A DNA stretch of 32,000 bases from Promethearchaeum syntrophicum (GTDB lineage Archaea > Asgardarchaeota > Lokiarchaeia > Sigyniarchaeales > Promethearchaeaceae), in contig NZ_CP042905.2 of NCBI RefSeq assembly GCF_008000775.2, forward strand, positions 1,020,001 to 1,052,000, in the 5' to 3' direction. Below, piece after piece: positions 10,919-27,246 of the stretch (position 1 is its first letter; every line of letters starts with the position of its first letter). The notes beneath the pieces are model-generated. The model worked only from the letters and a program-made list of their open reading frames with translations. It was not told the DNA's origin and ran no database searches. A program made the position numbers and the translations under genes.

Positions 10919-11572
10919 TTATTTTAAAATCGATAACCCGTTTGATATTTCAATTTTCAATTTCTCATGAATTTTTAAAAGGATCGGGTGGTCGGGGGGT
11001 AAATTTGCTTCAAGTAATTCCCTTTCTTTATAATTTCCTTCAGAATACAATCTTTCTAATTCCTCTTCAGTTAAAGCTTTCTCATTTTGAATAAGTTGTT
11101 GTGCAAGATCCAGAGTTGTTTTATTTATATGCAAAGGATCTACATCCTCTTCTGAAATTATATCCCAAGTTTCTATTGTTTTTTTTTTCTTTTTGAACTG
11201 TAATGAATCAATAGGCATGGGAATATCAAGAAATACTTTGTTACTGTCATTATGTGGTAAAAATTTTCTAAAAAATATGTTTCCATTCAATTTTTTATTC
11301 TTAATTATCCATTTAATTAATGCGGTATCAATAATATCTAGTTTAATAGAAACCCATTTATTTATGGTAGAATTTATTTTAAAAGCACCGTAAGCGTAAA
11401 ATGGGCAAAAAATTATAACCATATAAGCGAAAATATTAAGTCCTCTAGCAAAGAAAAAAGCTGAGAGTATAATTAAATTTAAAATTACATCAATGTGTAA
11501 CGCAACCCTTAATTGTGCTCTTCTCTGTGGTAACACTTTTTTCACTTTCTCCAACTTATACCATTTACTCAA
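10919..11572 (-). CDS. Membrane protein (2 TM hairpin) with a cytoplasmic region ending in a 67-aa module shared with the LRR protein
   Basis: Two hydrophobic helices are present (LIILSAFFFARGLNIFAYMVIIFCPFYAYGAF). The C-terminus KTTLDLAQQLIQNEKALTEEELERLYSEGNYKERELLEANLPPDHPILLKIHEKLKIEISNGLSILK aligns without gaps to the C-terminus of the 20424-21815 product. Function unknown. Confidence 0.6.
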   Translation of the reverse strand: MSKWYKLEKVKKVLPQRRAQLRVALHIDVILNLIILSAFFFARGLNIFAYMVIIFCPFYAYGAFKINSTINKWVSIKLDIIDTALIKWIIKNKKLNGNIFFRKFLPHNDSNKVFLDIPMPIDSLQFKKKKKTIETWDIISEEDVDPLHINKTTLDLAQQLIQNEKALTEEELERLYSEGNYKERELLEANLPPDHPILLKIHEKLKIEISNGLSILK

Positions 11573-18801: not shown

Positions 18802-20241
18802 CTACCAAGGATGTTTTTTCCGCTTCTTCTTTCCTTGCATCATCTTTTGCTGCATTTCTGCCATTTCTTGCATATCAGGCATTTGGCCACCGTCTAATCC
18901 TGGAATACCACCCGCACCTGGTTGTCCTTTTTTACCACGGCGTTTCTTCCCTAAAATTCCCTTCATAAATACTTTCATTTGAGAATATTGTTTTAACATC
19001 TGTTTTATTTCCGTGTATGTTGTGCCGCTTCCCCTTGCAATTCTTGTAATTCGAGTTTTTCTTATAACATCTGGATTATCTTTCTCGAATTTAGTCATCG
19101 ATCCCAATACATAATCCCATTTATCTAAGTTAGCTTCGGCTAATACCTTAGCTTGTTCAGGGATATTCTGCCCTCCCATCATAGCTAATATTTTTGAAAA
19201 TCCGCCCATTTTATCAAGCGATTTAAGCTGAAGATGCATATCATCAAGCGTAAATTTACCTTTCATCATTCTCTTCATTTGGTCTTCGTCGGGTTCAAGT
19301 TCAAGCTCTTTTACTTTCTCGATTAATCCTTCGATATCAGGGATCCCCAACAATGTTCCGATAAATTTTGAAGCATGAAACTCTTCCAAATCATCAACTT
19401 TTTCTCCAACACCAATAAATTTGATAGGTGCTCCTGATGCGGCTGCTGCTGAAAGTGCTCCTCCCCCTTTTGCTGACCCATCCAATTTGGTTATAATAAT
19501 TGAACCAACATGTGTAGTCTGTGCAAAAGCAAGAGCTTGAGCATAAGCTTGTTGACCTAGTGTTCCATCAATTACCAAAATAGTCTCATTTGGTTTGATT
19601 ATATTTTCCAGTTTCTGCATCTCTTGCATTAATGCAGTTTCTTGCTTATGTCGACCTGCAGTATCCACAATGATAAGATCTTTTTGGTCTTTACCAGTTT
19701 TTATAAAATGTCTTAATCCTTTTTTAGCGATTTTTATGGCATTTTTCTCTTCAGGCATTCCAAAATGGCTCACTTTGATTGAATCACAGGTCTGGGCCAG
19801 CTGGTCGTATGCACCGGGTCGCCACGTGTCCGTACAGATAACTCCTATCTTGAAACCTTTTTTCTTATAAAAATTTGCGAGTTTTCCTATACTAGTTGTT
19901 TTTCCTGAACCTTGGATTCCAACTAAAAGAATTATTGATTGTTTGCCGGTTTTTATCCGTTTAGGAGCGTTATCTCCCCCAAGAATGTTTATTAACTCAT
20001 CATGCACAATTTTAATTATAAATTCTTTTCGTTCGATTTTTTTATTTATCTTTTGATCCATAGATCTCTTCTTTATATTTTCAGTCAATTGTAGACATAG
20101 CTCAACGTTCACATCGGCCATCAACAATGCCCTTTGTAACTCTAGTAGGATTCCGTTAATAGCATCTTTATCAATTTCGGGTAAGCGGCGTATTTTACGA
20201 ATGAGTGAATCAAGAGATTTTCCAAGATCGTTTAAAACCAT
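18802..20241 (-). CDS. srp54: Signal recognition particle protein SRP54
   Basis: It has an N domain, a G domain with [15 protein letters not shown] and TKLDG motifs, and a Met-rich M domain ([20 protein letters not shown]). Confidence 0.95.
20122..20241 (-). repeat. Resident copy (srp54 codons 1-40) of a diverged 120-nt direct repeat; partner at 22045-22164
   Basis: By-eye alignment gives 41 nt identical (20201-20241 vs 22124-22164) and about 20 mismatches over the full 120 nt. Homology starts exactly at the start codon and ends after codon 40. Confidence 0.85.
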
Positions 20242-20423
20242 TTTTACATGTGCTCTTCCTATTTTTTATTTAAATATTTCATTATTTTATTTTTTATATA
20301 TATATAGAAATGGATGAGATTTGAAGTTTTAGAGGATTTGCCATGATATAAGGCAAGAAATTTTTCAATTTAAAATTTTTTTTACCATTAGAACTAAAAC
20401 ACATTTTTTACAACTCTCTACAA

Positions 20424-21815
20424 CTATTTAAAAATTGATTCTCCCGAAAGCAGATTGAATTTAAGTCGTTGGTTGATTTTTTGAATAACAACATTTTCAC
20501 TTGGAAAATTCGATTCGAGCGCATTTCGATCTTCGATATTTGCCTCCCAAATTATTCGCTCGAGTTCATCATCGCTGATTGAATTGGGATCTGAAATGTA
20601 TTGTTGAATAAGTTCAGTAGTTGTTTTTTTGTAATAATTCATTATTTGGTCAATAATCTCCATATTATAGAATTGTCCAGTTTCCATTTCCCCAGTGTCT
20701 TCATCGATCCTTTCATAGGGTGTTAGGAATCTATTTATGAATTCATCAAATCGGGGTCCTAAGTCGAATCCTTTGTATTTTTTATATTGAAACATTAAGC
20801 AGAAGGTAAAATCATGGTTTAAATAGCATAAAGAACGAAGTGGGTTATTTTGGATCTCAATTCTGGTATTAATTTTAAGTTTTGAGGGAAAATACTTTAA
20901 GGATGTTAGATTGTTACCCATCAGATTTAATTTTTTAAGGTTTGGCAGTTCACGGGGTAAACCTTCTAAAGAAACCAATAAGTTTACTCCAAGAGCCATA
21001 TCTTCAAGAAGAGGAAGATATTTGGGAAAACCTCGTAGATTGCGAAGAGGGCAGCCTGTTACAGCGAATTTTTTTAATTTCGGCAATGATGAAGGAATTA
21101 ACTCTAAAGTCTGAATGAGGCAATTATGAATACCGAATCTTTCTAAAGAAGGTAATTTATTTGGAATCCCTCTTAGGGAATTAAGAGAACCTTTAAAAGA
21201 TGGAGGATATGAAGCGTTAATAATAAAAGTTTTTAACGAGGGGAGTTTCGCTGGTAGATCACTGATATCTGCTATTTGAGAATTACTAATGAATAAATTC
21301 TCAAGGTTTGGCAATAATTTCGGTAATCCTTTTAAATTTGATAGCGGAGCTCCTTTTTTAGTCGCTTTTTCATATTCTAGAGAGTCTTTTATGTAGTATA
21401 AATATGAAAATCCGTTAATAGATAGTTTCTTCAGATTTGGCAATTCTTTAGGTAATCCTTCTAATGATTTGATTTCATGGGAAATTATGCCCAAAATGGA
21501 AAGATTTGGTAAGTCTTGTGGTATTCCCTTAAGTGAATCAACAGAATAAGGGGGAAAATCAAACAAATTAATAATAACGAAATTAGGAAATTTTTCCTTA
21601 AATTCCTCTTTAGAAGTAAGACCTTTTCCAAACCTATATGGTTCGGGCTGAGAAAAAAGTTTATAAATTGCATCTTTTTTTTTTTTCATACAATAATGGA
21701 GAAAGATACCTGTTGTTGATTCATTAATTTCATCCCAAATATGGTTTAAATCTTTCTTTCGATAAACATTATTAATTTTATCCTTCTTGGATTCGATTGT
21801 CTTCAATTTAATCAT
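20424..21815 (-). CDS. Leucine-rich repeat protein with a unique N-terminal region and a shared 67-aa C-terminal module
   Basis: About 10 tandem LRR units of ~22-24 aa have the signature L.G(L/I)P..LPNL(K/E).L.I (e.g. SLEGLPKELPNLKKLSI, NLKGLPKLLPNLENLFI, SLEGLPRELPNLKKLNL). The C-terminus aligns to that of the 10919-11572 product. Confidence 0.8.
   Translation of the reverse strand: MIKLKTIESKKDKINNVYRKKDLNHIWDEINESTTGIFLHYCMKKKKDAIYKLFSQPEPYRFGKGLTSKEEFKEKFPNFVIINLFDFPPYSVDSLKGIPQDLPNLSILGIISHEIKSLEGLPKELPNLKKLSINGFSYLYYIKDSLEYEKATKKGAPLSNLKGLPKLLPNLENLFISNSQIADISDLPAKLPSLKTFIINASYPPSFKGSLNSLRGIPNKLPSLERFGIHNCLIQTLELIPSSLPKLKKFAVTGCPLRNLRGFPKYLPLLEDMALGVNLLVSLEGLPRELPNLKKLNLMGNNLTSLKYFPSKLKINTRIEIQNNPLRSLCYLNHDFTFCLMFQYKKYKGFDLGPRFDEFINRFLTPYERIDEDTGEMETGQFYNMEIIDQIMNYYKKTTTELIQQYISDPNSISDDELERIIWEANIEDRNALESNFPSENVVIQKINQRLKFNLLSGESIFK
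20811..21533 (-). repeat. Internal LRR-encoding tandem repeats
   Basis: Recurrent DNA units appear on the + strand, such as aggtttggcaataatttcggtaatcc, agatttggcaattctttaggtaatcc and aaggtttggcagttcacggggtaaacc. Coordinates are approximate, derived from aa ~95-335. Confidence 0.6.
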
Positions 21816-22044
21816 CGATTTTTCCTTTCTATTATAATTTTCGGGTTATTATTTTTAAATATTGACAGAGGTACTTTTTATTGATTAATACGATGGAATT
21901 CATAAAAAAAAGGGAAAAAATATTACCATGCGCATTAATAATTGGGAAACTCGTTCAAATATTCCTCGATATGGGTTTCTAAATCGAATCCAGCTGGAAG
22001 TCCCAACTGAGCATATATTGATACGGATTGCATGGAGGGAGGAT

Positions 22045-22164
22045 CAAAAGCGCTCTTTGTAATTCTTGTAAAACCGCGCTAATAGAATCTTTATCAATTT
22101 CGGGCAATCTTCGTATTTTACGGATGAGTGAATCAAGAGATTTTCCAAGATCGTTTAAAACCAT
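22045..22164 (-). pseudogene. Orphan 5' fragment of an srp54 allele (codons 1-40 only)
   Basis: The track ORF 21979-22164 begins [40 protein letters not shown]. Real SRP54 begins [40 protein letters not shown]. After codon 40 it reads unrelated sequence and stops at codon 61. Confidence 0.85.
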
Positions 22165-22213
22165 ATTCTCAATAATTCCAATTCAACGACATTCAAAAAT
22201 TTTATTTAAAATC

Positions 22214-22987
22214 TTATTCTTCCAAATTATCTGTTCTTGATGAATAAAATCCCAGAAAGAAAAAACTGATAACTAAGGTAAATAAAATCCATGAAATCAG
22301 ATTGTAGACTGTCCTCCCTTCTACTGTTTGGAGATCTATCACCATAAATATTAACATTATCAACATAAAAACACAACCTAAAGCTAAAGCATAGGCTCTC
22401 CGAACAAAATTGATTATTTTTGTATCCGAATATTCAATTGAACCTATTTTTTTTAATTTTTTTGCTGTTAAAATCATGTTGAAAAATAAATATATGTAAG
22501 ATACAAAATGCAAAATATATAAAATGAAAACTCCAATATAGCCAAAATATTTTGATTCTACTTCTACTATTTCTTCATTTACTGCAAAAATTATATATGA
22601 TAAAATAAGGGACCCAATGAAGCCAAGAAATACATAGATTGCAACAAATGTTTTGAATCTCTTTGACTTTACATAATCTTCAGAGGAAAAAAGTTCTAAA
22701 CTAAAATAAAATAATGCAATATTCCCTAAAATAGAAAAAAATAACTCTGCTCCAACGAAAACATTATTTGCTTGAGGAAACACTTGATTCAAAATTGCTA
22801 ATCCTGGAAAGAAAAAATAACACAAGAAATAATATGAGATATATTTTGAAGATAATTTCTTCTCTTTTTGGTAATAAATATAAGCAATAACAACATAAAT
22901 TATTGAGAGAGCTGCTCCTAAAATTTTTAGAATATATCTTGAAATCTCAAAAATTTCTGGACTTAATTGCATTTCCATGAATTTCAC
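22214..22987 (-). CDS. Seven-TM integral membrane protein, function unknown
   Basis: About seven hydrophobic segments of 20-27 aa, rich in aromatic residues, are separated by short loops. No soluble domain is recognisable. Confidence 0.6.
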   Translation of the reverse strand: MKFMEMQLSPEIFEISRYILKILGAALSIIYVVIAYIYYQKEKKLSSKYISYYFLCYFFFPGLAILNQVFPQANNVFVGAELFFSILGNIALFYFSLELFSSEDYVKSKRFKTFVAIYVFLGFIGSLILSYIIFAVNEEIVEVESKYFGYIGVFILYILHFVSYIYLFFNMILTAKKLKKIGSIEYSDTKIINFVRRAYALALGCVFMLIMLIFMVIDLQTVEGRTVYNLISWILFTLVISFFFLGFYSSRTDNLEE

Positions 22988-23058: not shown

Positions 23059-23502
23059 TTATAATATCGATTTATATTCTTGGGCTTGGAGAAATGATTT
23101 GATTTTTTGTTCTAATTGATGCTCCTGAGTTGCTAGTAGATAATTTTTAGTCCAAATTCCCGAAGTACCACTTTTAATGGGGGATAAATGTTGTAAAAAT
23201 CTTCTTGAACTAACCGATTTTAGATTACTGATAAATTTCGTTAATTTCATCAAATCCTTTTTAGTTTTTTTTTCCCCATAAACTGATAAATCTGTTTGCG
23301 ATTTCGCTTCAAATATAATTTCAATGTGTTTTTTTTCTAAATAAACGGAGATCAATTTAACATCATCATCATTCTTCTCAAGATTAAAATAATTTGTAAT
23401 AATATCTTCCATTTTATCTTTTAATTCTTTAGTTGTAAATAAGGATTTATCTCCTTTTGTGCAAAATATACATTCATACCTAAGAAACTCAATTAATTTC
23501 AT
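23059..23502 (-). CDS. Divergent IS200/IS605 TnpA-like (Y1/HUH-fold) protein, paralog 2; HUH replaced by H-I-E
   Basis: It is a paralog of the upstream gene (shared VKLISVY...H.EI.F.A block). LRYECIFCTKGDKSLF parallels YHIVWCPKYRRKVL. KKHIEIIF sits at the DHIHIL position. LKSVSSRRFLQHL parallels KGRSSRILRQEF. IWTKNYLLAT parallels LWTNSCFIST. KSFLQAQ parallels QYIENQ, with Phe at the catalytic Tyr position. Comparison was made by eye against remembered IS608 TnpA. Confidence 0.45.
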   Translation of the reverse strand: MKLIEFLRYECIFCTKGDKSLFTTKELKDKMEDIITNYFNLEKNDDDVKLISVYLEKKHIEIIFEAKSQTDLSVYGEKKTKKDLMKLTKFISNLKSVSSRRFLQHLSPIKSGTSGIWTKNYLLATQEHQLEQKIKSFLQAQEYKSIL

Positions 23503-23525: not shown

Positions 23526-24017
23526 TTAAAATTTCTCAATCGTGCTGATTGTTTTTTGAAGATTTAGATACGCTTCTAACTGTTGTTTTACTATTTGTCT
23601 TCGAGAACTTAAGAATATATTCTCATTCCAAAGACTATCCCCCAAAAGAAGAAGAATTTCCTTCAGCTTTGGAACATCTTTTTTTGCTTCCTCTAAAATA
23701 TACTCTGCTGAATGATTATACAAATCTTTTATAAATTGTTTTAAGTTGAAGACTGGTAGAGCTTGAAAATTGATTTCTACATGATCATTGTGTACATATA
23801 CTGAAATTAACTTTACATTCTTCTTTTTTTCATTTTTTTCATAAAAAAAATCATAGATCCCTGCCTGAATAATCTCTTTCATTTGTTCATTAATTAAAAT
23901 TTCCTTAAATTTACGAATAGTGAAAACAAGGATATACCTTAACAACGTAATGGATCTATTATTTCTATCCATTATTTCTATTTTCAAATAATTTTTCAAT
24001 TCAGATCTATAGTACAT
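23526..24017 (-). CDS. Divergent IS200/IS605 TnpA-like (Y1/HUH-fold) protein, paralog 1; HUH replaced by H-V-E
   Basis: It is collinear and nearly ungapped against IS608 TnpA. RYILVFTIRKFKEIL parallels YHIVWCPKYRRKVL. VKLISVYVHNDHVEINFQALPVFNLKQFIKDLYNHSAEYIL parallels VEIIEMQTDKDHIHILADIDPSFGVMKFIKTAKGRSSRIL. LWNENIFLSS parallels LWTNSCFIST. EAYLNLQ parallels KQYIENQ, with Tyr retained. An internal ATG at codon 16 is an alternative start. Confidence 0.55.
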   Translation of the reverse strand: MYYRSELKNYLKIEIMDRNNRSITLLRYILVFTIRKFKEILINEQMKEIIQAGIYDFFYEKNEKKKNVKLISVYVHNDHVEINFQALPVFNLKQFIKDLYNHSAEYILEEAKKDVPKLKEILLLLGDSLWNENIFLSSRRQIVKQQLEAYLNLQKTISTIEKF

Positions 24018-24309: not shown

Positions 24310-25014
24310 CTATAAAACCTTTTTATCTATCAAGTTCGGAAATTTTAGAGGGATTTCCGAAATATCATTAATAATGTAATCCGCTTTTACTTTTTGAAAG
24401 AGTTCAAAGGTTCCCGCTCCACTTAGAACTCCAACCGTAATAATCCCCGCTTTTTTTCCTGCTAAAATATCTTTGGGAGAATCTCCAAAAATCATAATAT
24501 TTTGTGGTGAAAAACCCCATTTGTGTAATAATTTCATTACTCCTTCTGGATGGGGTTTCTTATGTTTTACATCATCTTTTGAAATTATATTCCCTTCAAA
24601 ATAATTCAAGATGTCTTCCCTGCCATCAAAAATTGATTTTATCTCATTGCGACTTGCATTCGTAAACATACCGATTTTAACATTATTTATCTTTAAAAAT
24701 TCTAAAGTCTCTTGAGTTCCATCTATTAATGGACATTTCTGAACAAATTCATATAGCACATTTCTCGCTTGGAACATCATTTTTATCCGTCTAAAAAAAT
24801 TAAGGTTCATTTTTTTTCCTAGAAACATCATAACTTCATACCTTTCGATAGCTGAGCCAGTTATAGAGAGAGGGATGCCAACCTTTTCTCGAAAAAGAGC
24901 ATCTAATTCATCAGTTAAAGGAAAATTATAATCCTCTGCTATTTTTCTATGAATATTTATAATGAATGGAACATCGTCTATAATCGTTCCGTCTAAATCG
25001 AATATAACGCCCAT
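24310..25014 (-). CDS. HAD-superfamily phosphatase (phosphoglycolate phosphatase/PGMB-like subfamily)
   Basis: Motif I follows directly after the ATG at 25012-25014 (MGVIFDLDGTIIDD). The remaining HAD motifs (TNAS; K..KP.PEG; GDSPKDILAGKKAG) follow in order. The track uses TTG 25053, adding 13 aa; the ATG start places DxDGT at the usual N-terminal position. Confidence 0.8.
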   Translation of the reverse strand: MGVIFDLDGTIIDDVPFIINIHRKIAEDYNFPLTDELDALFREKVGIPLSITGSAIERYEVMMFLGKKMNLNFFRRIKMMFQARNVLYEFVQKCPLIDGTQETLEFLKINNVKIGMFTNASRNEIKSIFDGREDILNYFEGNIISKDDVKHKKPHPEGVMKLLHKWGFSPQNIMIFGDSPKDILAGKKAGIITVGVLSGAGTFELFQKVKADYIINDISEIPLKFPNLIDKKVL

Positions 25015-25138
25015 TTCTTTTTTTATGTTACCCACTATACATTTAAATGACAAAATAGTATTAAAATGAATTGGTAGAGATATAGTGCTGACATGCTAAA
25101 TACCGAATTGGGCGTATGAAACTTAAGATTTGAATTTT
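24921..25138. repeat. Copy A of a ~220-bp diverged direct repeat (HAD codons 1-~32 plus ~124 nt upstream)
   Basis: It aligns by eye with 26861-27081. The distal 71 nt (25068-25138 vs 27011-27081) have 7 mismatches. The coding part is about three-quarters identical, with one in-frame 3-nt indel. Confidence 0.85.
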
Positions 25139-25504
25139 GATTTATTTAAAAAATAAAAAGAAAAAGAAATGATGATAAAGAATGATACAAAAATAATAAA
25201 AGAATTTCAAGATGATTTGGTCTTTTATAGATTTGGTTTATTTAATTTTATTAATTCGTATTCTGGGTTGTTTAATTTATATTTGAATCTCCAATTGATA
25301 AAGGAATGGAAATTTGAGTAATTATTGAATAAAATATGCAAGTTCTATTTCAAACAATATATATATAATCAATTTATAATTTTTAGGGAACATAATTAAA
25401 TATTTTAAGTGAATCAATTAATATTGTGGAGGAAATGAATAATTAGAGTAAAAATTGTTAAAATCCATAGAGTTTTATCATGGTTCTTAGTTCTTTTTTC
25501 AATT

Positions 25505-26827
25505 TTGACAATTTTTACTGGATATATAATAGCAAGAAAATGGTTTCTTATTGAGAATATCTATATTTTATCCACCCTACATAAAATTTTCGAGTGGTTT
25601 TTCTTAATCCTTCTGATTTTCCATCTGATTTTAACTTCAAAGTATTTTTCCATCAATTGGGCAAAAGAGATTCATGGTATGAGAAATTCAAGGAATCGAA
25701 AAATTCACCAATTGAGGATTCTACAGAGAATCACTAGTTGGTTGATTCTGATTAGTGTATCGCTTGTTGTATTGACTGGATTGCACAACTATCAATGGTT
25801 TTCGTTAACTCTCGGACAATTTTTTCTGTTTAAATATCATTCAGTAGTAGATGGATTTCTAACAATTTTTATACTCATTCACTCGGGATTGGGAGCAATT
25901 AAAGCAATAGAACGTAAGAAAGAGAAATTCGATAGAAATAATATTTATGTATATATGATAATGTTCTTATTGATTGGAGGGACCGTCTATTTGGAAGTTT
26001 TTCCTTATATCCTAGGAAACGATTCTATTTCCCAAAATCCTTCGAATATTTTAGAAAGTGAATCCATTGTAATAGGAGATCAAGTTTTTAATTTCAATCC
26101 TCTTGAAATACAAACGATCCGGGAAGATCTGTTTAAAAATGGTTCGTTTTCTGTATTTGATATATTGGTCTATCTTGACAATTTAGGTCAACTCGATTTG
26201 GATTACCATTTCAATGGAACGTTGAACACTTATGTTATTGACAATTTGGAACAACAAAATTTATGGTGGTATAAAATAAAATATTCAGGAGGTTGGGATG
26301 AGAAAAATGTTTTTCGAATGGATCATTATCCATGGAAGGTAGGATCATCTGTGACCCTTCAACCCGCTTCTAAATCTACACTAGATCAAATTTATGCTAC
26401 GTACCTTGAAGAAAATGAACGTTTGGTTTCAAACAATGGAACAGTCATCATTCCCAAAGTTGAAATTAATGGAAGAACAATAAACTATAATTTCTATAAC
26501 GTCACAATAAATCCACACAATTTACGTAATGATACATTCCAAGAGGGGGTAATAACTGCTATTGATATCATTATGAGTTTGGTTGATCAGGGATTAATAA
26601 GCTCTTATAATCTACAATGGTATGATGAAATAGGTACTGCTGAATTTGTTAGGAGTTATTGGGTTGAAGGGATAGAAAACGATAATGCTTACGGAACTTG
26701 TGGTTTTGTTTATGAATCGGGAGATACTGATTTTCCATTCTTTGATGGAAATCATATTCATCTTCCTTCGGATACTCGTATCTTGAATAATCCGGAATAC
26801 TCCAGATGGTTCTGGATATGTCTTTAG
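25505..26827 (+). CDS. Membrane protein: N-terminal 4-5 TM His-containing bundle (cytochrome-b/DUF4405-like, tentative) plus a ~270-aa extracytoplasmic domain of unknown function
   Basis: The TM helices carry conserved-looking His residues (LILLIFHLILT, VVLTGLHNYQ, KYHSVVDGFLTIFILIHSGLG). The C-terminal domain is rich in N/Y/W (NLWWYKIKYSGGWDEKNVFRMDHYPWKVG). The start is TTG, and the reading frame stays open 66 nt further upstream (from 25439) without an ATG/GTG/TTG. Confidence 0.6.
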   Translation: MTIFTGYIIARKWFLIENIYILSTLHKIFEWFFLILLIFHLILTSKYFSINWAKEIHGMRNSRNRKIHQLRILQRITSWLILISVSLVVLTGLHNYQWFSLTLGQFFLFKYHSVVDGFLTIFILIHSGLGAIKAIERKKEKFDRNNIYVYMIMFLLIGGTVYLEVFPYILGNDSISQNPSNILESESIVIGDQVFNFNPLEIQTIREDLFKNGSFSVFDILVYLDNLGQLDLDYHFNGTLNTYVIDNLEQQNLWWYKIKYSGGWDEKNVFRMDHYPWKVGSSVTLQPASKSTLDQIYATYLEENERLVSNNGTVIIPKVEINGRTINYNFYNVTINPHNLRNDTFQEGVITAIDIIMSLVDQGLISSYNLQWYDEIGTAEFVRSYWVEGIENDNAYGTCGFVYESGDTDFPFFDGNHIHLPSDTRILNNPEYSRWFWICL

Positions 26828-26858
26828 GCAATAAATAAATTGAAAAATTTAACTAGTA

Positions 26859-26956
26859 AGGGGAAATATAATCTTCTGCAATTTTTTTATATAGATATTG
26901 AGAATGAACGGGAGGTTTTCTAAAATTGTTCCATTTAAATCGAGAATTACCCCAAT
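26859..26956 (-). pseudogene. Orphan 5' fragment of a HAD phosphatase allele (about 33 codons, start codon ATG to ATT, DLDGT to DLNGT)
   Basis: The reverse strand reads (att)GVILDLNGTILENLPFILNIYIKKIAEDYISPY-stop. The resident gene reads MGVIFDLDGTIIDDVPFIINIHRKIAEDYNFPL. Many codon differences are synonymous (ggc/ggg, gtt/gta, ata/att, acg/aca, cca/ccg, att/atc, gag/gaa). Confidence 0.8.
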
Positions 26957-27081
26957 TTTTTTTTTTTTATTTCACCCATTAAACACTTAGATGACAAAAT
27001 TAATTTAAATAAATTGGTAGAGATATAATGCTGACATGCAAAATACCGATTTGAGTGTATCAAACTTAAGATTTGAATTTT
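26861..27081. repeat. Copy B of the ~220-bp diverged direct repeat (partner 24921-25138)
   Basis: See copy A. The T-run is expanded to T13 (26956-26968) relative to copy A. Confidence 0.85.
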
Positions 27082-27246
27082 AAATTCTGTTTTGATACAT
27101 TGAAATCAAATTATGGATAAGATATTCTTTTTTATTTTATTCATTTAAAATTCGACGACTAAACATCATTAAAATTCAAAAAATTCATAATATCTAATAA
27201 CATATATTTATAGTAAAAACATTTTAACAAAGAATAAGTGATAATT

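Follow-up and report, generated by a model that had tools for sequence, protein, structure and literature searches.

An insertion scar at the 5′ end of srp54 in Promethearchaeum syntrophicum, probably left by recombination with DNA of a diverged relative

In this work we analyse a 32-kb stretch of the genome of Promethearchaeum syntrophicum MK-D1 (called the window, i.e., the whole 32,000 nucleotides; all positions given below are those of the window, and nucleotides of srp54 are counted from its ATG), in which the first 40 codons of srp54 are present twice, with a gene of the leucine-rich-repeat (LRR) family lying between the two copies. The short copy, which we call the stub, stands at the ancestral site of srp54, while the full-length gene stands on the far side of a segment that came from elsewhere. 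It is probable, in our view, that the arrangement is an insertion scar, made by one homologous and one illegitimate join with DNA of a diverged relative and followed by a short gene conversion of nt 1-41.

The full-length srp54 (18802-20241, minus strand; DSAG12_01516 in the annotation of Imachi 2020, Suppl. Table 3) encodes 479 amino acids with the Pfam domains SRP54_N, SRP54 and SRP_SPB, and its product has 85-91% amino-acid identity to those of Promethearchaeum relatives, some of these matches being partial. Its nt 1-123 (20119-20241) recur at 22042-22164 on the same strand. A repeat search gives a direct repeat of 125 nt with 85% identity (20120-20244 and 22043-22167), and the self-BLAST of the window gives it with E = 7e-34. 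The two ATGs (at 20241 and 22164) are in register: the first 41 nt (20201-20241 against 22124-22164, hereafter the core) are identical at 41 of 41 positions, the next 79 nt at 61 of 79, and the similarity becomes near-random beyond nt 122. This gives 102 identities over 120 nt, i.e., 18 mismatches, where the first-pass annotation, made from the letters alone, had counted about 20; the repeat itself, which it placed at 22045-22164, and its identical 41-nt start are borne out, and the identity evidently extends past the core. Its count of 14 differing codons, nine synonymous and five replacing the amino acid (A27S, N29S, G30A, I31V and L33Q), is also right, except that the CGC/AGA pair of arginine codons, described as a three-nucleotide swap, differs at two positions only. 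The stub continues as an intact open reading frame (ORF) of 61 codons (21979-22164, minus strand, in the ORF list), consisting of the native srp54 codons 1-40 and 21 out-of-frame codons, and Pfam recognises SRP54_N in its residues 6-40 (E = 4e-4).

The polarity of the change follows from the relatives. Scanning genomes and metagenomes with SRP54 retrieved five Promethearchaeum loci (L001, L002, L006, L076 and L089), and in all five the gene of a seven-transmembrane (7-TM) protein is followed, after about 50 nt, by an intact srp54 with no LRR gene between them. This is the ancestral order that had been guessed from the window, and the arrangement of MK-D1 is shared by none of these relatives. 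L002 and L006 have their genes in the order HAD, Y1-like, Y1-like, 7-TM, srp54, with 54 nt between the last two. L089 is the closest relative (84-86% nucleotide identity); its alignment, which agrees with the stub side of the window, is unbroken over the Y1-like gene, the 7-TM gene and the intergenic spacer and reaches into srp54. In the window the 7-TM gene, the ancestral upstream neighbour of srp54, lies at 22214-22987 (minus strand), and the ATG of the stub is found 49 nt past its stop (about 50 in the first-pass annotation). The intergenic region between them (22165-22213, minus strand), with the ancestral promoter motif at 22200-22218, is almost identical to the spacer of L089 and homologous to those of L001, L002 and L006. 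Because the 7-TM gene and srp54 adjoin in the relatives and because the spacer is homologous, the stub sits at the ancestral site of srp54, behind the ancestral promoter. By this comparison the DNA from 22042 down to 20242, roughly 1.8 kb, is inserted.

The insert is derived from an LRR locus. The LRR gene (20424-21815, minus strand; DSAG12_01517) encodes 463 amino acids with the Pfam domains LRR_4 and LRR_8 and is 100% identical to a P. syntrophicum entry in nr; homologs with 50-70% identity stand in other contexts in L072-75 and L156-158. From 22033 down to 20419 the window is 74% identical, and contiguous, to the LRR locus on metagenome contig L075 (nt 226-1847), and the LRR gene together with about 55 nt of promoter matches L072-74 and L157 as well. 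Along with the gene has moved its own upstream and promoter region (21816-21934, minus strand), in which the block of about 55 nt is kept in L072, L075, L157 and L158. Upstream of this come the 3′-terminal 36 codons and the stop of the gene that precedes the LRR gene at the native locus (21935-22045, minus strand), which is an ORF of 91 amino acids in L075; the translation, DPPSMQSVSIYAQLGLPAGFDLETHIEEYLNEFPNY and a stop, agrees with the C-terminus of the L075 ORF at 24 of the 36 residues, in a frame that differs from that of the stub. The srp54 homology ends at nt 122, and the foreign gene fragment begins at the same GAT (22043-22045, minus strand), so placed by comparing the stub, the full copy, L089 and L075, where srp54 TTGATGGC meets GAAGATGCT of the LRR-locus gene. 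The left junction thus has a GAT microhomology, and since the last 36 codons of a neighbour gene of the L075 type are included, the left end of the insert lies where a gene was broken.

It is noted that the insert contains the LRR gene and one gene fragment only. The interval had been described as holding only the LRR gene, its flanks and a new srp54 upstream region with a (TA)6 tract; the tract is there, but so is the 111-nt fragment of a third gene. Neither an integrase nor another recombinase is encoded in the insert according to the ORF list and Pfam, no transposase is found in it by Pfam, and there are no real terminal inverted repeats at its ends; the sole flanking inverted repeat, formed by the stop region of the LRR gene and the TATA box of that gene, is not kept in the other LRR loci. 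The duplication, being 123 nt long and diverged, does not match a transposon target-site duplication. An attachment site at a tRNA or other RNA gene was considered and rejected, since neither tRNAs nor Rfam families turned up over the whole window. A viral or mobile origin of the cargo was rejected likewise: the LRR protein is without a relative in viral contigs, and its PHROGs matches are weak and only to families of unknown function. A word-based protein search with the 91-aa gene returned only the query itself, and is uninformative as to whether MK-D1 has its own copy of that gene.

Two observations on the LRR loci may be added here. The contigs L072, L073 and L074, all from metagenome-assembled genomes (MAGs), start 41-125 nt upstream of the LRR gene, which hints at repeats or strain variation breaking the assemblies there. 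In addition, the C-terminal residues of the LRR protein, about 87 in number (20427-20687), have 34% identity (E = 1e-10) to 10922-11176 (minus strand), the C-terminus of an unrelated 217-aa ORF (10919-11572), so that the two proteins share a C-terminal module.

A repeat of 41 exact nucleotides is a branch point in de Bruijn graphs of short k, and it could be supposed that the assembler has joined two strain haplotypes here. If this were true, the chimera would be expected to switch from one haplotype to the other, not to duplicate sequence. The MK-D1 genome was closed from a culture, with SPAdes at k up to 99 and 2x300-nt mate pairs with 3-kb inserts (PMC7015854), and the culture contained a single Asgard strain. 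Moreover, the Logan assembly of run DRR199588 has a contig of 1,942 nt that is identical to window 20212-22153, its ends lying inside the two core copies; this independent contig reproduces exactly the stub from nt 12 to nt 123, the junction, the LRR gene, the new upstream region and srp54 nt 1-30. Another Logan contig of the same run ends at 22135, and both break points are the expected ones for a graph with k = 31, which has to branch at a 41-nt repeat. Exact look-ups found the 463-aa LRR ORF and found nothing for SRP54, the stub and a 460-aa LRR entry; those of SRP54 and the stub came back empty because the Logan contigs break inside the repeat and cut both genes. A strain-chimeric assembly is unlikely on this evidence, and to an artefact of this kind we assign next to no probability.

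We now consider which of the two copies is native. Parsimony-informative sites were counted, region by region, in quartets of sequences. In quartets made up of the stub, the full copy, L089 and an outgroup, the stub groups over nt 42-123 with L089 at 3-6 sites, the number depending on the outgroup, and with the full copy at none, and over nt 42-120 the stub is identical to L089 at 69 of 79 positions, as compared with 63 of 79 for the full copy and L089. For the full copy with L089 the site-pattern counts are 7:0:0 over nt 1-41, 7:0:2 over nt 124-190 and 11:1:5 over nt 191-486, but 2:2:3 over nt 42-123. Sites at which the full copy equals L076 and differs from L089 cluster at nt 60-142, the last being 138 and 142, and sites of the L089 type resume at nt 147. 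In the region fixed a priori, nt 42-123, there are 8 sites at which the full copy equals L076 and not L089 and 5 of the reverse kind, as against 15 and 69 elsewhere (Fisher p = 0.002). The discordant tract of the full copy, nt 42 to about 145 (20097-20200, minus strand, the right-hand limit being approximate), would then be donor-derived, as far as can be judged from these site patterns, which mark the stub as the native allele. Over nt 1-41, by contrast, the two copies are identical to each other, match L089 at 40 of 41 positions and have 9-15 differences from the other relatives, so that the stub and the full copy are each other's closest relatives for nt 1-41 only and not for nt 42-123.

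The kinds of change tell the same two copies apart from a decaying duplicate. Between the stub and L089 there are 10 synonymous codon changes and one replacement (N29S), and between the stub and the full copy 13 synonymous and 5 replacement nucleotide positions, where random mutation of the stub sequence would be expected to give 23-31% synonymous changes. The synonymous excess between stub and full copy has P = 8e-5 if both copies are taken as neutral and P = 0.01 if the stub alone is. Because its changes are mostly synonymous, the stub has, for the greater part of the time after the divergence from L089, evolved within a gene that worked, and the event is thus comparatively recent. Both the grouping with L089 and this excess agree with the earlier suggestion that the two copies are diverged functional alleles.

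The same site patterns bear on a different proposal, namely that a circle of 1.9 kb integrated by a Campbell-type or site-specific exchange, with the 41-nt core as attachment site and nt 42-123 of the stub borne by the element. A perfect direct repeat at both ends of the insert is the feature expected of a site-specific integrative element, the assembly graph at k = 31 would by its topology also allow a circle beside an intact chromosome, and in another Promethearchaeota lineage (L157, from MAG GCA_054386115.1) an LRR-family gene occurs at a different intergenic site. If this proposal were true, nt 42-123 of the stub would be expected to be foreign and the full copy native, and the site patterns are the opposite. 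It would also be an element without integrase and without terminal inverted repeats, with an end that is a random break inside a gene and a protein for which viral contigs gave no relative, and the Y1 transposase-like genes nearby are present in relatives that have no insertion. We thus regard the integration of a circle as quite improbable, and the Campbell-type single crossover that the first-pass annotation had offered as one of two routes fits worse than the other route, one homologous plus one illegitimate join. The latter is what the two ends of the insert look like, with a break inside a foreign gene fragment at GAT and the end of the discordant tract only about 20 nt further on.

The event that we propose, with one homologous and one illegitimate join, can be described as follows. 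Before it, the resident order would have been the 7-TM gene, the promoter and srp54. DNA of a diverged relative would have served as a template for recombination or repair; its order would have been small-gene 3′ end, LRR gene, srp54 promoter and srp54 5′ end, with the LRR gene directly upstream of srp54. On the srp54 side the exchange would have been homologous, with the crossover at about nt 143-146, and on the other side the donor DNA would have been attached by an illegitimate join behind nt 122 of the resident gene, at a microhomology of 3-4 nt, GAT[G]. In this way about 1.9 kb of donor DNA would have replaced about 20 nt of resident sequence. Because the donor piece brought its own srp54 start, the first 40 resident codons and the resident promoter would have been stranded upstream, where they now form the start of the 61-codon stub. 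Later, a gene conversion from the stub to the full copy, bounded by the beginning of homology at the ATG, would have made nt 1-41 identical. The two joins lie only about 20 nt apart in recipient coordinates, which fits the repair of a break at that spot by copying off the diverged template, the second end being captured by microhomology, and the switch of site-pattern topology between nt 42-123 and nt 124-486, although based on few sites, gives moderate support to the homologous join. The order of these steps within a single event, and the manner in which the DNA entered the cell, we infer.

Some points weigh against this proposal. The arrangement postulated for the donor, an LRR gene adjoining srp54, is not found among the relatives retrieved. 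The phylogenetic signal comes from only 79-82 nt, in which few sites are informative. The conversion of nt 1-41 is an extra step that is needed to account for the 41 of 41 identities and is not demonstrable here, and we know of no DNA-uptake route in P. syntrophicum. Note also that our first argument for a donor tract, the raised divergence between the full copy and L089 over nt 43-190 (best segment p = 3e-4, uncorrected for the segments scanned), had to be rejected: L089 and L001 show the same 2-fold divergence ratio over these nucleotides, and the divergence is raised there because of weaker constraint on the N domain.

We turn to the region between the cargo and srp54. The new srp54 upstream region of 182 nt (20242-20423, minus strand), with the (TA)6 tract at 20295-20306, has no homolog either in the 7-TM/srp54 spacer of the relatives or in the other LRR loci, and the last 177 nt before the ATG have none among the 160 loci compared, apart from a 20-nt promoter motif. 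This motif, AATGAAATATTTAAATAAAA (20264-20283, minus strand), lies 22 nt before the ATG and equals the ancestral srp54 motif of L089 and L002 (AATGAGAT-TTTAAATAAAA) save for one change and one extra base, the ancestral spacing to the ATG being 35 nt. The window matches the pattern of the motif once, where chance would give 0.00 matches, and the only two occurrences of the 11-mer TTTAAATAAAA in the 32 kb both precede an srp54 start. The claim that the sequences upstream of the two ATGs are unrelated has to be corrected, since the promoter-like motif of 20 nt is common to both. A promoter motif of the srp54 type thus sits between the LRR cargo and the srp54 anchor.

A rival explanation with no LRR-srp54 donor is that, within the MK-D1 lineage, a replication template switch or repair synthesis copied an LRR segment into srp54 and came back to a point behind the one it had left, so duplicating nt 1-123 in place, and that an unrelated short patch of allelic recombination with a relative later replaced nt 42-145 of the full copy. 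This explains the identity of the core at all 41 positions with no separate conversion step, the microhomology junction and the broken neighbour gene suit a template switch, and it does not call for the donor arrangement that the relatives fail to show. On the other hand, the foreign patch would have to coincide, by accident, nearly exactly with what is left of the repeat, the srp54-type motif in the new upstream region is left unexplained, and among the LRR homologs there is no second copy from MK-D1. We regard this course of events as rather unlikely, and prefer the recombination with a diverged srp54 locus proposed above.

Under the recombination that we prefer, the full-length srp54 would now run from the imported promoter, to judge from the sequence upstream of it, and the ancestral promoter points into the stub ORF and, past it, towards the LRR gene, which has that same orientation. 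In the annotation of MK-D1 there is a hypothetical gene, DSAG12_01518, between the LRR gene (01517) and the 7-TM gene (01519), and by gene order the stub ORF is presumably this gene. In the published RNA-seq table DSAG12_01518 has 254 reads per kilobase per million (RPKM), the LRR gene 229 and SRP54 304. This is weak evidence that the stub is transcribed, the RPKM range being narrow in the rows seen and the first 41 nt not being uniquely mappable.

These values bear on still another possibility, that the insertion is ancient, was lost in the relatives through deletion between the repeats, and that selection has kept the stub in MK-D1 because it encodes a small protein or leader with a function. 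In favour of this, the stub ORF is intact, its promoter is retained, its changes are mostly synonymous, and it is apparently annotated with an RPKM like that of its neighbours, with the reservations just given for the rows seen. It would be expected, however, that precise losses occurred repeatedly, because the five relatives without the insertion represent at least three lineages; moreover, the discordance lies in the full copy rather than in the stub, which is left unexplained, and the last 21 codons of the stub are an out-of-frame reading of the fragment of another gene. An ancient insertion with such losses is, in our opinion, very improbable.

It is noted that the proposed insertion by one homologous and one illegitimate join resembles processes studied elsewhere. 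Homology-facilitated illegitimate recombination (HFIR) was described in transformable bacteria (Acinetobacter, Streptococcus pneumoniae and Pseudomonas stutzeri) and in conjugation of E. coli (PMC3240628; primary references in PMC5361080). As in HFIR, a short stretch of the recipient is swapped here for a longer foreign piece, with one homologous end that has a mosaic and the other end at a microhomology of a few nucleotides. The primary HFIR papers reportedly give microhomologies of 3-8 nt, which GAT fits. Unlike HFIR in the experiments, the present case is a natural footprint in an Asgard archaeon, its homologous anchor has a divergence of about 20%, a short conversion tract has to be assumed in addition, and the donor piece includes the 5′ end of the target, which leads to the duplication.

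At the Rhs, CdiA and type VI secretion system (T6SS) effector-immunity loci, displaced gene ends are left as "orphan" remnants, for which a mechanism like HFIR was proposed (PMC5361080). There, too, the DNA that comes in has a conserved part of the gene in common with the resident copy, takes the place of the resident end and pushes the old end aside. By contrast, those loci exchange variable 3′ toxin tips with immunity genes, under diversifying selection and often repeatedly, whereas here it is the conserved 5′ end and the promoter of an essential housekeeping gene, exchanged once, with an LRR gene as unrelated cargo. Integrative elements, whose attachment sites are in tRNA or protein genes, can also duplicate part of their target. 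They resemble the present case in that a direct repeat with an identical core brackets the insert and the target stays intact through the copy of its end that is supplied; they differ in that here there is no recombinase gene, the core is at the wrong end of the repeat for an element targeting a 5′ end, the displaced copy is the native one and the insert ends at a random break inside a gene. The srp54 scar is a natural case, resolved in good detail, of a type of recombination for which bacteria provide ample documentation; it extends the range of that type and is not a new process; we know of no earlier description of such recombination in this organism.

The HAD gene nearby provides a second case. 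The first-pass annotation had seen the same signature there, and the self-BLAST bears it out: 24918-25138 (minus strand), which comprises the upstream region and the first 45 or so codons of the full-length HAD gene (24310-25053; Pfam HAD_2), repeats at 26858-27081 (minus strand) with 79% identity and E = 2e-47. The second copy is a decayed 5′ stub, with frameshifts and DLDGT changed to DLNGT, that lies beside aIF5A, and the insert, 25139-26857, contains the gene of a 440-aa membrane protein (25505-26827, plus strand; DSAG12_01523; DUF4405 / cytochrome-b-like), which is not present between HAD and aIF5A in L002. In L002 aIF5A and HAD are direct divergent neighbours, and nt 1-186 of L002 match window 27344-27172; from this match it follows that the stub copy of HAD sits at the ancestral site and that the 440-aa gene is the insert. 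The coding parts of the two HAD copies are 73% identical to each other, as compared with 81% and 78% to L006, and being farther from each other than from L006 they argue against a simple duplication in place. The HAD scar is an older case of the same design. With every ORF of the window used as query, no further stubs were found beyond those of srp54 and HAD.

The two events are 5 kb apart, their repeat periods are nearly equal (about 1,940 nt for HAD and 1,923 nt for srp54), and in both the resident gene was broken 120-140 nt after the start codon. These likenesses in size and break position and the short distance between the events, together with the LRR family at the HAD/aIF5A junction of L157 (see below), allow the reading that Promethearchaeum may gain genes recurrently by displacement of 5′ ends, perhaps through a dedicated mechanism, and that the two cases are no mere accidents. 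To this reading we give a low probability. In such a case a "homing" cassette free of recombinase could spread with the promoter and start of its target gene; alternatively, there could be a break-prone site at a fixed distance from promoters. It might also be that the stranded stub, with its 40 residues of the SRP54 N domain, is itself functional if still transcribed.

The srp54 scar gives evidence at the level of base pairs on gene gain in the archaeal group closest to eukaryotes. If the proposed event is right, a cultured Asgard archaeon has taken in DNA of a relative about 20% diverged, by homologous and illegitimate joining, inside an essential gene whose promoter was swapped. The stub is a datable relic that can be used in the search for the donor lineage and for estimating the genome-wide frequency of such events, and the second case only 5 kb away suggests that the process is not rare in this genome.

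As to the surroundings of the HAD gene, a conserved element upstream of it (25060-25143 and 27003-27086) has 86-88% identity between the two copies of the window, as against 73% in the adjacent coding part. In L157 this element is tandemly duplicated (83-151 and 156-224), with the palindrome CCGAATCGG, and it may serve to regulate the divergent promoter region of HAD and aIF5A. At the same locus (L157 225-2805) two genes are inserted between HAD and aIF5A, one of 235 aa and one of the LRR family, the latter with 71% nucleotide identity to the LRR gene of the window over 922 nt; the presence of this LRR-family gene there indicates that the neighbourhood gains genes repeatedly.

Finally, we note two pairs of tandem ORFs. 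Two Y1_Tnp (IS200-like) ORFs, 23059-23502 and 23526-24017 (minus strand), have 25-27% mutual identity, and L002, L006 and L089 keep at least one of them at this position, with HAD on one side and the 7-TM gene on the other; the pair looks fixed, possibly domesticated, rather than like an active insertion sequence. The adjacent ORFs 1991-2254 (87 aa) and 2269-2526 (85 aa) are 41% identical and are tandem paralogs.

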